Positions 32,125 through 37,566 of a stretch of DNA of 64,000 nt are shown here, piece after piece. Under the pieces are notes generated by a model. The model made no database searches. It saw nothing but the letters and a program-made list of their open reading frames with translations, and was not told the origin of the DNA. The DNA comes from an uncultured delta proteobacterium (GTDB lineage Bacteria; Desulfobacterota; Desulfomonilia; UBA1062). Both the position numbers and the translations under genes were made by a program. The first letter of the stretch is position 1. Each line of letters opens with the position of its first letter. The stretch lies in the NCBI GenBank assembly GCA_963798485.1, contig CAWCTR010000030.1, positions 32,001 through 96,000 of the forward strand. The letters run 5' to 3'.

Positions 32125-32955
32125 TTACTCCTCGTGGAGTACGGTCTTGATGATGTAGCTGCCCGACTTTTCGTCCAGCTCCAGCTCCAGCAGGTGCCTG
32201 TCCCGCGCCTCTTCCAGGAGGCGGCTGAAAGACCTGAAGCCGTAGTAACTCTCGTTGAAGCCGGGTTTTCTGCGTCTGAGCGCCTGTTTGATCATAGATC
32301 CCCAGAGCTTGTCCTCCTCGCCGCGCTCATCGAACAGTGCCTCAACGGTCTCCACCACCAGTTCCAGGGCCTTGAGCTTCCTGTCCTCTTCGGCATTCTC
32401 CTTCTGCTCGGGTTTGACCAGGGCCTCATGGGACGGTTTCGCCGGGGGTTTCCTCGCCTTGCGGCGCTTGGCCTCGCTCTCACGGACCAGGTCGTCATAG
32501 AAGATGAACTCGTCGCAATTCGCTATAAGAAGCTCGGAAGAAGAGTTCTTCACCCCTACGCCGATGACGAGCTTGTTGTTTTCTCTCAGCTTGCTCACAA
32601 GCGGAGAAAAATCAGAGTCACCGCTGATGATTACAAAGCAATCTACATGGGATTTGGTGTAACAGAGGTCCAGCGCATCCACGACCATGCGTATGTCCGC
32701 CGAATTCTTGCCGGACTGCCTCAGGTGGGGGATCTCGATGAGCTCAAAGGATGCCTCGTGCATGACCGGCTTGTAGTCCTTGTAGCGCTCCCAGTCGCTG
32801 TAGGCCTTTTTCACGATGATGTTTCCCTTGAGCAGCAATCGCTCAAGGATCTTCTTCACGTCGAACTGGGCATATTTGGCGTCTCGAACGCCGAGCGCGA
32901 TATTCTCAAAATCACAGAACAATGCCATGTTCTGGGTCTTTTCCAGTACGGCCAT
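32125..32955 (-). CDS. NYN (PIN-like, LabA/DUF88) ribonuclease domain protein with C-terminal OST-HTH/LOTUS domain
   Basis: ALFCDFEN; GKNSADIRMVVDA; ISGDSDFSPL; PGFNESYYGFRSFSRLL. Confidence 0.88.
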   Translation of the reverse strand: MAVLEKTQNMALFCDFENIALGVRDAKYAQFDVKKILERLLLKGNIIVKKAYSDWERYKDYKPVMHEASFELIEIPHLRQSGKNSADIRMVVDALDLCYTKSHVDCFVIISGDSDFSPLVSKLRENNKLVIGVGVKNSSSELLIANCDEFIFYDDLVRESEAKRRKARKPPAKPSHEALVKPEQKENAEEDRKLKALELVVETVEALFDERGEEDKLWGSMIKQALRRRKPGFNESYYGFRSFSRLLEEARDRHLLELELDEKSGSYIIKTVLHEE

Positions 32956-33294
32956 CAATCGCTCCTTATGGGCAAGTGTACCCTTACCATTGTTAAATCG
33001 TTCATTCCATTTCCCCTGTATCCGCCTTCATATCCGGTCATGACGCGGTATCGCTTCATTCATCCTTTCTTTCTGCAAATGTGTCAAGGTGATAAATCGG
33101 AGGGTGTTTGGATTCAAAAGATTTTATAATGACATGGCCCGGCAAATTGGATGAAGCTGTTCTCATGTATTCGAAAACCCGTACATGTGGGGGAAGGCAC
33201 TGACCTTAAACAATCCACACTCTGAGCCCATCGGGGGATGAGTGATGATTATGGTAAGAAATCCTCAGTCTGGGCTAATCGTGATGTATGGCAC

Positions 33295-33747
33295 CCATTA
33301 AAAGGCCCCTGTCAATAAAAACATAGTTCACCATCGCACTTTTTTTTGCAGGTCTAACGTATAGCCAGCTGGGATCATGCCAACGATTCCCTTTCTGCGC
33401 CCTGTTTTTCATTATGCTCAGGTGACAGATTACAATCTGCACCAGGCACCCATCGGGTTTTAGACTGCACAGCGAGAGGATGAACCTAGATGAGTAGCCC
33501 TCTCAACCCGTACGCCCCTAACAGCATCTGCTGTCCCAGAAAAATATCGGTTCCTTGCCATGTTCAATTGTAAGTGACACGACAATAGGCTCTTCCGGCC
33601 ACACCTTAAAGACTCATGGCAAAGGCAGATCTGAACCATCGGAATTACCTCCACTGGATTCTTGTTTATAAGAGAGGGGTAAACGGCGGAGCAACCACGA
33701 AAATGGTTCTTAGCCACCAAACGTCTGGTCTCGCCGTTTTCCCCTGC
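33295..33747 (-). ncRNA. Putative bridge/seek RNA region of the IS110 element
   Basis: Structured non-coding end downstream of the transposase; contains ATGGGTGCC and TACTCATCTA, which match the element's own end junctions. Confidence 0.55.
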
Positions 33748-34773
33748 TCAGCAAAAGAGCATCTCTTCCTTGAACTCAACGCCATCTCTGAGCATATAGT
33801 AGCAGGCCCTGGCAAGCTTGCTTGCTATGGTCTTGATTGCCACCATCCTGTGAGTTTTCGAAGCCTTCCTTTTGTAGTAGCCGGCAATCTTCGGGGACTG
33901 CCTTAGGGAGATAAACGCCGCTTCAATAAATGCCCAAGCCAGATACCGGTTCCCATTCTTTGCATTGCCTTTGCCCTTGCTCTTCCCGTTCGAAAACCTC
34001 CCGGTAGGAACACAACGGCAGTAAGAGGAGAAGTCTCCCACCCTTGCAAACCGCGAAATATCTCCCACTTCCAGCATGATCGTCATGGCAAGGATGTCAC
34101 CGATCCCAGGAACCATGTGCAGTTTCTCAAAAGCATCCCTCGTCTTCACTTCTCTCTTTACCGTCTTCTCGATATTCCTGATGTTCTTCCCGAGAAAGGC
34201 TATGGTTTCAAGGCTCGTTGTACCAAGGAGAACTAAGTGCTCCTCCTTCAATATCCCTTTGATGTCTTCCGATTTAACCTTCCTCAGTGCATTCGCACTC
34301 ATGTGCACACCGGTGTTCCTCTCGATCATGGACTGCAGCGAGATGATATGGGCTGTTCTTTGCTTTACCAGGAATGATCTCTTCCTCAAGAGATCTCGAA
34401 CCGGTCGCTCTTCCCTGGGATAGATATATCCTTCAGGGAGAATGCCGAGAGACATCATCTGCGCAAGCCAGAAGGCATCATGTCGGTCATCCGCATACTT
34501 GAGCCCTTTGTACTGCTGTATCGCTGCAGGATTGGCAAGATGTACACAATCATACCCTGCCTCATTGAGCCCATCCACCAGCCAGTACCAGTTAAAGGTG
34601 CTTTCGACAGCTATCCCCCTGATCTCTTCACGGTAAGGGTTTAGGGTCCAAACGAGTTCTTCCAGGTTATTCTTTACACGCTTCTCGAAAACTCGCTTCA
34701 TTGTTCCCTTCTCGATCAGCCCTATGTACGTGTTCCCTGAATGGAGATCCAACCCGGCATACAGCTCACTCAT
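33748..34773 (-). CDS. IS110-family transposase/recombinase
   Basis: DEDD RuvC-like motifs GLDLH, VESTFNW, DDRHDA; PGIG; catalytic-serine region FSNGK; GNRYL; intact 341 aa with GGAGG SD. Confidence 0.93.
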   Translation of the reverse strand: MSELYAGLDLHSGNTYIGLIEKGTMKRVFEKRVKNNLEELVWTLNPYREEIRGIAVESTFNWYWLVDGLNEAGYDCVHLANPAAIQQYKGLKYADDRHDAFWLAQMMSLGILPEGYIYPREERPVRDLLRKRSFLVKQRTAHIISLQSMIERNTGVHMSANALRKVKSEDIKGILKEEHLVLLGTTSLETIAFLGKNIRNIEKTVKREVKTRDAFEKLHMVPGIGDILAMTIMLEVGDISRFARVGDFSSYCRCVPTGRFSNGKSKGKGNAKNGNRYLAWAFIEAAFISLRQSPKIAGYYKRKASKTHRMVAIKTIASKLARACYYMLRDGVEFKEEMLFC

Positions 34774-34915
34774 GACACACCTCCTCCTGAGTTATTGTCT
34801 GTATTATAGCCGTGCGATCTTGGCGAAAGTGCCTTTTAGATGATTATCACGTGATCTTCAGTCATGGATAACCAAACATTACCATAAGGATCATCAGAGG
34901 ATGTTACCATGAGGG

Positions 34916-37237
34916 TTAATGATTCTCCAATAAACTATCAAAGTATTCGGTATTCCTCAAGTTGTCCAGATCATGGTCTTTTTTCAGCAGATCCCAGTCA
35001 CTGAAACCTTTCTTTATAGCCTTATCCAGAAAATTTCTCGACTCTTTCAATCCATTCCGTCTGGAGTATATACATGCTAAATTATAATAGACCCCTGGGT
35101 TTTCAGGGGTTATGTTTAGTTCTTTCATCAAATAATCAATGCATCTATCGTATTGCCCCTTCATTGAATAATATACAGCCAAAGAGCTAAGTATCTTCAG
35201 ATCATGTGGATTGTATCTCAAGACATCTTCGAGCTTTGATATGGACGCATCAATCTTTGTCATCTGGGCCATTGCGAAAGCAAGGTTTCTTTGTGCAATG
35301 GTAAGGTCGGGTTTTATTTTCAGGGCCTCATTGTACTGCTTGACTGCCTCACCAACCTGATTAATTCCCATCAAGGAATAGCCGAGATTGTTGTGCACCA
35401 TAGCATGATCTCTATCATCAATGTCATTGCCCAAGAAATAATGCAGTAATGGATTCATCTGGCCTATCTTTAGACCGTCTGTGTAGACTTGAATTGCATC
35501 ATATGAGTTTCCTTGGGCGAGAAGGGTATTGCCGACATTGAGTTTTGCATTAATTGCTAATCTTACCTGCTGGGGACAAAGGGGATTTGGGTTCATTGCC
35601 TTAACATAATTTTTCGCAACTTCAAGATCACCAACCGATAAGGCAAACTTTGTGATGGTATCGGCCTGATATATGCCGACCTTATATACCGATTCTGCAA
35701 TGGTACGTGTATAATGAGATAAATCGGCCCTATTTGATAGAAAGATACATGCTGAAGGCCCATAGTAAACAGGCCTCCAATCTGGTGATGTAATGAAATA
35801 TTGGAATATTGGTTTTTTATAGGAGAGACACCATAGATCACATTTATTTTTATTTAAAAAAAGTTCAATATGTGTTTTATCCTGACTCCATTCGAATTCT
35901 ATGTATTCGGAATACCATCTCCTATAGGGGAAGTATCGTGCGTCAATAAATACTTTTTTTGAGGGCCATAATGACCAAAGTAAATAGGAGCCACAATAGT
36001 AATCATTGCCCATGAGCAGATCTGGAAAATTGGTTCGTATATAATTTGCTTCTGATACTGGGCTAATATAATCAGGGTTCAACCCAAAACCTGGTACGCA
36101 GAAAGATTCATATTGTGCTCTTACAACAATAAATAGCAAAAGAATCAAAGTAATACCATGGAGAACAAATTTCAGTGGCTTTTTAATCGATACTTCTGAA
36201 TCATCTTGAGAAATCTTTTTTATTAAATAAGTAGATGAAAATACGAAAATAACAGCCCAAAAATATGTTGCCCTCAAGTATTTAATGTAGATGATCAGGA
36301 ATAATGCATTTACCAACAGCAGTGCCCAATCAGTTCTATTTCGTCTTAATTGAGCAATCATGAGAATAATGAGTATTCCTAAAGAAACAATCATGTAATC
36401 TATGAAATGAGAATAGTATGCTACAGGGGAAAAGATAGAGAAATATTCAGATACATTTATCATGTGCCCTTTAAATTCTTCAGGATTAATAACAAGATTA
36501 TTTACTAACTGTATCGGGTATCTCCACCCATATGGTGTTATAAGAACAGCAAGACCACTTAATATTATCGATATGAATAAGTGTTTTCTGTCTTGGGGAT
36601 TGAGCTTTTCAGATGAACCGGTAGCTAAGTTGATTACTTCTCCAACAAGAACCAGTCCAAGAAATACTATCCCGAAAATAAACCCGCCATGAGAGTTTAC
36701 CCATAATAACATAAGTAGTGGGAAGAGATAGAAGAGATACCAGTTTTTATCGGGACGGGTCTTGATTCTGAACCATGTCCATACCATAATTGTCATCAAT
36801 AAAAATGAGAAAAGTTCGGCTTTTATACGAAGCCCCCCACGAGACATGAGTAAACCAGTCAGGCATATGAGAAACATCACTGGAAAGAAGCCAGAGTGAT
36901 ATTTTTTAGGATATGAAAAAACAAGCAAAATGAATACCATGATGAACAGATACCTGAGAGCATAAAGCATTTGCAGGCCTCCTGCCTTAAAAAGCAAATA
37001 AAAGAAGATCTCGGGTATCCAAGCACAATAGATCTGGGTATTGTCTGTGGGTGTCCAACTGAAGATAGAATGATCAGGTATTAATGTATGGTTTGCCAAA
37101 AAATATCGACCATAAGCGAGGTGAAACCAGATATCTCCATCATTTATAGGTTCAGCATATTTAAGAGCTATTGTGGCAAGCACTACAATAGCAAGAAAAA
37201 CAAGAAATAATAGGGTACTAAAACGATATCTTCTCAT
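34916..37237 (-). CDS. Polytopic membrane protein (GT-C-like) with C-terminal TPR repeats
   Basis: DGDIWFHLAYG after the first TM segment; LWVNSHGGF; GSYLLW; FIDAR; many TM segments; TPRs (HNNLG, YYNLAC); AT-rich; start uncertain. Confidence 0.7.
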   Translation of the reverse strand: MRRYRFSTLLFLVFLAIVVLATIALKYAEPINDGDIWFHLAYGRYFLANHTLIPDHSIFSWTPTDNTQIYCAWIPEIFFYLLFKAGGLQMLYALRYLFIMVFILLVFSYPKKYHSGFFPVMFLICLTGLLMSRGGLRIKAELFSFLLMTIMVWTWFRIKTRPDKNWYLFYLFPLLMLLWVNSHGGFIFGIVFLGLVLVGEVINLATGSSEKLNPQDRKHLFISIILSGLAVLITPYGWRYPIQLVNNLVINPEEFKGHMINVSEYFSIFSPVAYYSHFIDYMIVSLGILIILMIAQLRRNRTDWALLLVNALFLIIYIKYLRATYFWAVIFVFSSTYLIKKISQDDSEVSIKKPLKFVLHGITLILLLFIVVRAQYESFCVPGFGLNPDYISPVSEANYIRTNFPDLLMGNDYYCGSYLLWSLWPSKKVFIDARYFPYRRWYSEYIEFEWSQDKTHIELFLNKNKCDLWCLSYKKPIFQYFITSPDWRPVYYGPSACIFLSNRADLSHYTRTIAESVYKVGIYQADTITKFALSVGDLEVAKNYVKAMNPNPLCPQQVRLAINAKLNVGNTLLAQGNSYDAIQVYTDGLKIGQMNPLLHYFLGNDIDDRDHAMVHNNLGYSLMGINQVGEAVKQYNEALKIKPDLTIAQRNLAFAMAQMTKIDASISKLEDVLRYNPHDLKILSSLAVYYSMKGQYDRCIDYLMKELNITPENPGVYYNLACIYSRRNGLKESRNFLDKAIKKGFSDWDLLKKDHDLDNLRNTEYFDSLLENH

Positions 37238-37566
37238 CTTCAGCTTATAAAATAATATTGGAATATTAATGAGATATACTATTGATCCATTTTGTACAAT
37301 ATCGAATATTATGAAGTAGTGTAAAAACAATGTGACATATATTTAATGTCCCTTATTTTCTGGGTCTTTCTTTTATCTCAGCCCATATGACAGAACCGTT
37401 GATTCCTATGATAAATCGGCGCTTTCCAAAGACCCTAAAACCAATGATCTAGGTTTGAAACATATGAAGATTATCACTGCATGCCAGGGAAATAAGGGCT
37501 CAGGTCTTGCTTTTTGCCTAGGGGGAAGTTAGCGAATAACCACATAAGCTGACAACATGAGCTCAC

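Follow-up and report, generated by a model that had tools for sequence, protein, structure and literature searches.

The 64,000-nucleotide stretch of DNA analysed here (the window) contains an insertion sequence of the IS1111 group, whose long tail downstream of the transposase gene (33747 to 33292, minus strand) probably encodes one long guide RNA with three modules, serving an active element; we put the probability of this reading at roughly 70%. From sequence comparisons we infer that a single RNA molecule is involved, that the transposase binds it, and which role each module plays. To our knowledge, bridge/seek RNAs are the only guides that specify both recombination partners, and those characterised so far are, as far as we know, short and have one target loop each. 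They are under engineering for large DNA insertions, and donor recognition in the IS1111 group is still unsettled.

The element and its ends are as follows (positions count from the first letter of the window).

33292–34849, minus strand: whole IS1111-group element, 1558 bp with the TG core at both ends, 1556 bp of which are inserted
34831–34849, minus strand: left end, made of the core TG, a 5-nt extension and the left subterminal inverted repeat (CATCTAAAAGGC)
33748–34773, minus strand: transposase gene, 341 aa, with Pfam and NCBIfam matches
33292–33315, minus strand: right end, with the TTGACA −35 box at 33315 to 33310 and the right subterminal repeat at 33306 to 33296
33294 to 33292, minus strand: right-end terminal GGG and core TG

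The transposase matches DEDD_Tnp_IS110 (PF01548, E = 8.7e-10) and Transposase_20 (PF02371, E = 7.7e-16) in Pfam, and scores 186.7 bits against a cut-off of 140 with the NCBIfam model NF033542 (IS110 family RNA-guided transposase). Its DEDD/RuvC-like N-terminal domain and Transposase_20 C-terminal domain place it in the IS1111 group. The same holds for the subterminal position of the repeats, the left one starting 7 nt inside the left end and the right one stopping 4 nt short of the right end (core counted in both cases), and for the distribution of non-coding sequence, with 455 nt downstream of the gene versus 75 nt upstream. The genome contains five full copies in total, three at 99–100% and two at 87% identity, as well as several partial ones. 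In the five full copies and in 37 elements of other genomes, the left end reads TG, then ATAATCAT, then the subterminal repeat, while the right end consists of TTGACA, a few bases, the inverted subterminal repeat and GGG-TG. Conservation among relatives begins exactly at the left-end TG. The aligned ends of these copies and elements therefore delimit the element as 34849 to 33292.

In a metagenome DNA contig from run X1, which contains 3 ambiguous letters, position 33291 is joined to 34848 and 33292 to 34847 are absent, that is, exactly 1556 nt. Given the copies and this contig precisely lacking 1556 nt at the locus, the insertion sequence is most likely active. Searching the genome with an 18-nt empty-site pattern gave 5 matches against 3 in the control, and a flank-profile search was used instead. 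The latter returned 77 matches to the repeat, 58 of which run uninterrupted across the join; these sites read ..AGATnnYG-TG-CCA.., and their logo is conserved where the guides read. As judged from the empty-site contig of run X1 and the uninterrupted sites, insertion is site-specific and entails no target duplication beyond the shared core. The repeat common to the target sites is mostly only ~60–125 nt long; the target is therefore a dispersed, REP-like repeat of small size, the kind that IS1111-group elements usually insert into. The genome also holds short relics comprising only the last 48–87 nt of the element. Parts of the element are without cover in runs X20 and X5.

A first-pass annotation had proposed an expanded bridge RNA in the tail, based on four stems and two sequence matches. 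All four stems are present on the minus strand where it had placed them. Three of them, namely P2, CAGATT/AATCTG and GGGG.AAACGGCG, also show covariation, whereas CGGGTT/AACCCG keeps only 4 of its 6 pairs in the 87% copies (by eye). The first match holds as well: ATGGGTGCC occurs at 33453 to 33445 and again at the right junction (33298 to 33290), and its last CC is target DNA according to the copy alignment, the run X1 contig and the empty sites. So does the 9/10 identity between TACTCATCTA (33496 to 33487) and TAATCATCTA (34846 to 34837). On the other hand, the right end had been set at 33295, 3 nt away from the true end at 33292. Within the window, the 9-mer ATGGGTGCC has 2 matches versus 0.88 expected, a number reached in 17 of 100 shuffles, and the 10-mer TACTCATCTA with at most one mismatch has 3 versus 3.4 expected. 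The tail folds moderately better than its shuffles (462 nt; z = −2.49, with 0/100 shuffles as good), and a permissive Rfam scan of 32900 to 35100 matched no family. Since neither match exceeds chance in the window and the fold is only moderate, we turned to relatives for support.

Scanning one genome per species confirmed 562 stretches that encode relatives, of which the best 80 were used. These share 47–93% protein identity with the transposase and come from MAGs and genomes labelled Desulfobacterota, Nitrospirota, Acidobacteriota, Gammaproteobacteria and others; in a plasmid collection, by comparison, relatives were distant only (best identity 49.7%). Single-sequence nhmmer detected a homologous tail directly after the transposase gene in 55 of the 80; one iteration raised this number to 74, with matches mostly near full length. 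Between the left target guide and the right end lie 340–499 nt (median 382 nt) in 53 elements, and 404 nt in this one. Since 74 of the 80 relatives share this homology along the tail, its length is a clade trait. By this comparison, the tail is long relative to the characterised cases and ordinary for its clade, and the expansion that had been suspected in this copy disappears when the relatives are taken as the yardstick. These data support the view that the feature is a family-wide variant of the bridge/seek RNA system.

The first of the three putative modules comprises the following features.

33732–33744, minus strand: P1 stem, 5′ strand, GGGG.AAACGGCG, closing the candidate target-binding hairpin
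33717–33728, minus strand: putative right target guide (RTG1), pairing with the right target flank
33704–33716, minus strand: apical hairpin beginning with TGG and ending with CCA, its GG/CC invariant in 47–48 of 48 sequences
33696–33703, minus strand: putative left target guide (LTG1) and core TG, in the same sense as the left target flank
33676–33688, minus strand: P1 stem, 3′ strand, CGCCGTTT.CCCC

Nearly all relatives build this hairpin on one plan: after the first strand of an outer stem come a segment that ends with ..GG or ..GT, an apical hairpin opened by TG-G and closed by CCA, another segment that finishes with the core TG, the sequence ATTGG (GTTGC here), and the other strand of the outer stem. 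Segment 1 corresponds, in reverse complement, to the right flank of the element itself, and segment 2 to its left flank in the sense orientation; LTG1 is followed by A(T) or G(T) and then TGG, corresponding to the first bases of the (invariant) left end. The relation between guides and flanks was assessed with permutation tests, which treat the elements as independent and ignore kinship; rows with ambiguous ends were dropped, amounting to 14 variant left ends in the LTG1 test and to 10 to 12 right junctions in the region test and the right-guide tests. In 45 non-identical guide/flank pairs, LTG1 is identical to the flank at 4.89 of 8 positions versus 2.72 after permutation (0/5000 as high), and the contiguous run from the core measures 3.38 versus 0.69. 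For RTG1, with 12 ambiguous right junctions left out, 6.63 of 8 positions pair versus 4.55 after permutation (0/3000 as high), the contiguous run is 5.67 versus 2.24, and as many as 9–10 contiguous pairs are found in elements L020, L047, L057 and L062. Furthermore, a register-free test of seven tail regions found own-target matches enriched only in module 1, where 0/300 permutations were as high on either side, and, more weakly, in module 2 (2/300 and 5/300).

The copies within this genome fall into two subfamilies, in which the right guide pairs at 7–8 of 9 positions with its own sites and at 4–6 with those of the other subfamily. For instance, RTG1 of the present subfamily pairs at 7–8 of 9 positions at its own three sites versus 4 at the other subfamily's two sites. 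This difference is consistent with natural re-targeting of the guide. LTG1 of this element matches just 2–3 nt plus the core at its five occupied sites; a better match, TTTCG-TG, is common among the empty sites. As for the P1 stem, its covariation exceeds that of 500/500 shuffles in an alignment of noisy register; a control slid by −1 scores higher (0.313 versus 0.254), which points to register noise in the alignment. Shuffling the 3′ flank of P1, a weak control, gave 63 of 65 for the real sequences and 40 for the shuffled ones. Applied to MAFFT alignments, RNAalifold returned only the apical GG/CC pairs of module 1, failed to recover P1 and gave nothing useful for the hairpin that follows the donor guide (see below); therefore, the stems were specified by hand for testing. 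Taken together, the covariation with the flanks supports the assignment of the target-binding loop to the first hairpin (33744 to 33676), the two sides of which match opposite strands of the target. The first-pass annotation had been unable to assign this loop unambiguously; it is located in the GGGG.AAACGGCG/CGCCGTTT.CCCC module.

The second module lies further downstream.

33553–33625, minus strand: module 2, closed by the P2 stem (33625 to 33615 with 33562 to 33553)
33611 to 33602, minus strand: right side of the module 2 loop (RxG2)
33586 to 33578, minus strand: left side of the module 2 loop (LxG2) and TG

P2 (CCTTTGCCATG/CATGGCAAGG) is the best-supported helix of the tail, with compensatory changes at 10 of 12 pairs in 44 sequences. 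The loop that it closes is flanked by the motifs of module 1, i.e., GA(A/G)CC, TGG, CCA, TG and ATTGG, and may well be an internal duplication of the module 1 loop. Both of its sides covary with the target: LxG2 scores 3.14 of 6 versus 1.85 after permutation, and RxG2 scores 4.41 of 8 versus 3.65, the latter value being too low, as one-column misalignments affect some rows; in either case, 0/3000 permutations are as high. The matches mostly consist of the 4–6 bases adjoining the core. In L060 and L028, the right side of loop 2 matches the flank better than that of loop 1 does; in this element, at most 3 of the 8 RxG2 positions pair with the target. When close relatives reside in different targets (L060 compared with L058/L059; L034/L035 compared with L067), loop 1 has changed and loop 2 has not. 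Since loop 2 does not follow re-targeting, its role as a guide is uncertain. We regard module 2 as a paralogous, slower-evolving, target-like loop and as a candidate guide of weaker covariation. The earlier suggestion of possibly more than one guide loop fits this picture: a second target-like loop does covary, more weakly, and it lags behind at re-targeting.

The donor-related features occupy the region that follows P2.

33536–33552, minus strand: J1 joining strand, complementary to left-end sequence immediately interior to the core; candidate right donor guide
33474–33504, minus strand: variable hairpin GAGAGG/CCTCTC, with TACTCATCTA (33496 to 33487) in its loop
33445–33454, minus strand: putative left donor guide GATGGG, core TG and 2-nt handshake CC, covarying with the right end
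33421–33443, minus strand: post-guide hairpin CAGATT/AATCTG, extended by GGTG/CACC

The family shares a near-invariant motif, GATGGGTG followed by two variable bases and TGG, which contains ATGGGTGCC. Its first eight bases copy the right end and the core. Indeed, variants of the right end are mirrored in the internal motif, namely GGC in L046, GTG in L054/L062 and the core CG in L064. In 47 of 54 elements, covering four classes (AC, CC, GC and TC), the handshake is identical to the two bases with which the target flank begins; the mean is 1.83 of 2 versus 1.28 after permutation (0/5000 as high). Given that the empty sites assign the handshake bases to the target, the motif combines left donor, core and right target, which is the sequence of the product junction. 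ATGGGTGCC thus behaves as a left donor guide with core and 2-nt handshake.

The conserved strand after P2 reads ACCGAAGATTTTC-TGG in most relatives and ACCGATATTTTTC-TGG in this element. With the register anchored at the core G, J1 pairs with the left end at 6.7 of 9 positions (6 of 9 in this element) versus 3.3 for other 9-mers of the same region; its covariation is 6.58 versus 6.21 after permutation, with 26/5000 as high, and matching changes of J1 and the left end occur in L054, L066, L068 and L084. J1 is therefore a probable candidate for the right donor guide. Two hairpins separate the donor strands: a small one, and one whose length and sequence differ among family members. Immediately after the left donor guide, the post-guide hairpin has 82.5% of its cells paired versus at most 56.6% in slid controls, and its covariation amounts to 0.220 versus 0.128 (0/500 shuffles as high).

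Two further stretches were considered and set aside. TACTCATCTA, whose resemblance to the left end had been noted at first pass, was rejected as a donor guide because its loop changes in the 87% copies while the left end stays constant; its match is within chance and its region test is not significant. A third left-flank-like site, located ~38 nt downstream of the donor guide and reading GAGTATCGTG in the 87% copies, was equalled by 220/300 and 48/300 permutations in the region test. Overall, the comparison of loops with target and donor sites among homologues, which the first-pass annotation had recommended, revealed both conserved structure and guide–target covariation. The loop–target covariation and that of ATGGGTGCC with the right end argue for a longer bridge RNA with extra modules, as that annotation had supposed.

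How far such an RNA might extend depends on three additional features.

33636–33660, minus strand: linker, one strand of a long-range closing helix predicted in the MFE fold to pair with the tail at 33363–33391
33410 to 33395, minus strand: conserved GAAA..GGGCGC motif
33391 to 33363, minus strand: tail strand of the predicted closing helix

The linker, which connects hairpin 1 to P2, is predicted to pair with a stretch located 30–100 nt before the right end; compared with shuffled tails, the linker/tail duplex has z < −1 in 35 of 42 elements, with a mean z of −2.47. Starting at 33744, the conserved structured span that bears the guides would reach 33421 at least (324 nt), and probably ~33363. 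This predicted span lies outside the reported sizes of 82–172 nt for seekRNAs, comprising a short form of 82–96 nt and a long form of 148–172 nt (table in PMC13604230), and of 150–250 nt for bridge RNAs (PMC11208160). In the one RNA library that contains the element, a single contig falls on it; this contig spans 365 nt (33351 to 33715) and includes none of the transposase gene. Since DNA may be present in an RNA library and contigs mark no ends, this contig is a weak hint of a long RNA.

A sequence scan of the integrated copy found no sigma-70-like promoter site. On the circle junction, the joined ends would give TTGACA, a 17-nt spacer and GATAAT. In all 50 elements with both ends called, this spacer measures 16–18 nt, and in 32 of them exactly 17 nt. 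This predicted junction promoter, together with none found in the integrated copy, fits expression from the circle, as described for ISEc11 (PMC11187229).

We propose that a guide RNA of at least ~320 nt, and probably ~390 nt, would carry three guide-bearing modules. In module 1, the 5′ side would be complementary to the right target flank, and the 3′ side would present the left flank in the sense orientation plus the TG core. Module 2, a paralogous loop of the same layout, would read just 4–6 core-proximal bases of the target and lag at a change of target. Module 3 would form the multi-branch donor region. There, a U-rich strand is complementary to the left end; the GATGGG-TG-CC strand reproduces the right end and core followed by the two initial bases of the target, a handshake-like extension that would allow pairing with the product junction. 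Transcription would take place mostly on the excised circle, from the TTGACA-17-GATAAT junction promoter, after which the RNA would bring together the circle junction and a REP-like genomic repeat, with recombination taking place at TG. A more specific reading, which we hold only tentatively and consider doubtful, is that the clade's single ~400-nt RNA has two target-binding loops that divide the labour between a fast-evolving site selector with a long guide and a duplicated, slow-evolving reader of the core-proximal target bases, with a short guide and a place beside the donor multi-loop. If this were true, the task of the second loop could be to retain, for excision, those flanks of the integrated copy that derive from the target, or else to proof-read the core region at synapsis; the handshake on the left guides would then imply an order of strand exchange opposite to that of IS621.

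Alternatively, the element could use a short seekRNA as ISEc11 does, the first hairpin alone (~85–95 nt) being functional and the other 350 nt being conserved for different reasons, such as providing DNA sites for the transposase, stabilising the mRNA or regulating the promoter at the circle junction; on this view, the internal GATGGGTGNC would serve as a DNA motif or a protein-binding motif. That an 82-nt ISEc11 seekRNA supported transposition, with a donor carrying target flanks (PMC11187229), agrees with this explanation, as do the target covariation, by far strongest in module 1, and the lag of module 2 at re-targeting. However, the 2 nt after the internal motif follow the target and not the element in 47 of 54 cases, a behaviour that is hard to explain for a protein site. 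In addition, P2 and the post-guide hairpin display RNA-type compensatory changes, module 2 still covaries with the target, and the RNA-library contig spans 365 nt. Considering these points, a functional RNA restricted to the first hairpin appears unlikely.

The internal right-end-like motif could also be an alternative right end, in which case the distal 160 nt would be a MITE-like hitch-hiker comparable to ssr9/MITEPpu9 behind ISPpu9. Indeed, ISPpu9 has end-like boxes around its downstream small-RNA module and forms several types of circle (PMC12288879), and relics of the last 48–87 nt of the present element occur in the genome. Yet these relics begin at other internal points, no copy in the genome terminates at the internal motif, and the distal part, which is present at a fixed distance of ~150–190 nt in most of the relatives listed, is not preceded by a left-end-like box, so that we judge a hitch-hiking module very unlikely. 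Finally, the mechanical list of open reading frames includes two that would make the tail protein-coding, one of 86 aa (33720 to 33460) and one of 55 aa (33442 to 33275). The 87% copies have a 1-nt deletion within the former, indels are numerous among the relatives, and conservation follows the paired stems; a coding function is hardly credible. The reading that we prefer to these three remains the long guide RNA with three modules.

Several aspects of the proposed RNA have counterparts in known systems. RNAs of the IS1111 group are encoded at the right end, and the segment matching the top strand precedes, in the 5′ to 3′ direction, the one matching the bottom strand (PMC11187229). Like the seekRNAs of ISEc11, ISPa11, ISKpn4 and ISPst6 (Siddiquee et al., 2024; PMC11187229), the candidate RNA would be encoded downstream of the transposase gene and contain a hairpin loop whose top-strand complement lies 5′ of the bottom-strand complement, the two overlapping at the insertion point. 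The elements also have in common subterminal inverted repeats and a potentially folded repeat as target, and a promoter like the one that those elements assemble at the circle junction is predicted for this one from its sequence. Unlike these seekRNAs of 82–96 or 148–172 nt, the conserved structured region found here covers ~320–390 nt; it also includes a second target-like loop and donor-matching strands, for which the available portions of PMC11187229 make no mention in ISEc11-type seekRNAs.

The candidate RNA would share with the IS621 bridge RNA (PMC11208160; PMC11208158) its bispecific nature, with one target loop and one donor region, and the division of strands between guides (the bottom strand for the left ones, the top strand for the right ones, core included). 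Extra dinucleotides matching the recombination partner are likewise known from the bridge RNA as handshakes (Hiraizumi et al., 2024; PMC11208158). However, the IS621 RNA lies in the left end, measures 150–250 nt and has two simple internal loops, whereas the present one would lie in the right end and be longer. In IS621, moreover, the handshake extends the right guides and pairs with top strands, while the 2-nt extensions found here follow the left guides in the top-strand sense. Unlike in IS621, the donor strands are placed here in a multi-branch region, and a third, target-like loop is present. Donor-binding nucleotides sit in a multi-loop in many IS1111 orthologues as well (Durrant et al., 2024; PMC11208160).

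A third case for comparison is ISPpu9 with MITEPpu9/ssr9 (PMC12288879), which has, as does the present element, a long downstream non-coding part containing an end-like sequence copy, and solo copies of the downstream part elsewhere in the genome. The downstream module of ISPpu9 is dispensable, has the two end boxes and is missing from most relatives; in contrast, the distal part described here is kept across phyla and has no left-end box. In the accessible parts of the literature, we found no account of RNAs of the IS1111 group having a second target loop. A preprint of October 2026 (10.64898/2026.10.21.760802) reports 86 covariance models of bridge-RNA variants, and its supplements or those of Durrant et al. 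may already include this clade.

If the proposed reading is correct, the second target-like loop, the multi-branch donor guides and the handshakes on left guides would widen the known design space of such guides, and the clade, which is widespread across phyla, would offer a natural system in which to learn how the IS1111 group tells insertion from excision. For this genome, the practical gain is that the element, its target repeat and its candidate guides are now annotated exactly.

A contig from the metagenome run X1 carries the insertion locus without the IS1111-group element: positions 33292..34847 are missing exactly, a precise absence of 1556 nt. The population that was sampled is therefore polymorphic for this insertion. 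The polymorphism reflects either a recent insertion or a precise excision. The element lies between two genes of the same orientation:

32125..32958, minus strand: downstream neighbour, encoding a protein that combines an NYN domain and an OST-HTH/LOTUS domain
34916..37330, minus strand: upstream neighbour, encoding an 804-aa membrane protein that contains TPR repeats

The element targets a short repeat, dispersed over its own genome at 58 sites, in which a small palindrome (CGTG .. CACG) surrounds the insertion point; for the window copy this point is 34850/33291. The repeat is common on contigs C17 and C9, and its sites are in some cases paired, about 48 nt apart. Many uninterrupted repeats contain TTTCG-TG (e.g., C17:102310, C17:80803, C17:17604, and C14:146469), and these sites fit the left target guide of the window element better than all five occupied sites do. 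Element copies may persist preferentially where recognition of the flank is poor and excision is inefficient.

Other loci of the same genome hold incomplete copies. Two short relics, L007 and L008 (contigs C10 and C22), retain just the final 87 or 48 nt of the element, joined without any gap to a left-target-like flank that ends in ..ACGTG; the right junction is normal. Both look like deletions running from the left junction to internal (G)TG sites. At C14:50152-51230 (L006/L009), 556 bp from the right-hand part of the element (89% identity) are separated by about 470 nt from a 103-bp stretch that duplicates (94%) the left-flanking sequence of the window copy, an arrangement which may represent a rearranged duplicate of the locus. 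The genome also encodes two more, different IS110-family transposases, at C17:97200-98285 and C17:368-1459 (271 and 234 bits, respectively).

Approximately 38 nt 3′ of the donor guide, the L004/L005 copies, which belong to the subfamily 87% identical to the window copy, contain a 7-nt stretch equal to the L005 left flank plus core. Its equivalent in the window is:

~33415..33406: approximate counterpart of the L004/L005 stretch

In the subfamily of the window copy, the sequence at this place is similar to the flank of L002. A region-level test for matches between this part of the non-coding sequence and the element's own flank was not significant.

Several relatives have altered right ends. 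The last 17-20 nt are tandemly duplicated ahead of the true target flank in L025, L068, L072, and L081, and the final four bases are doubled (GGTG GGTG) in L044 and L085. Finally, L013 and L019, which come from different MAGs, have CA in place of the expected right-hand core TG, with TG kept in the left core and in the internal donor guide.
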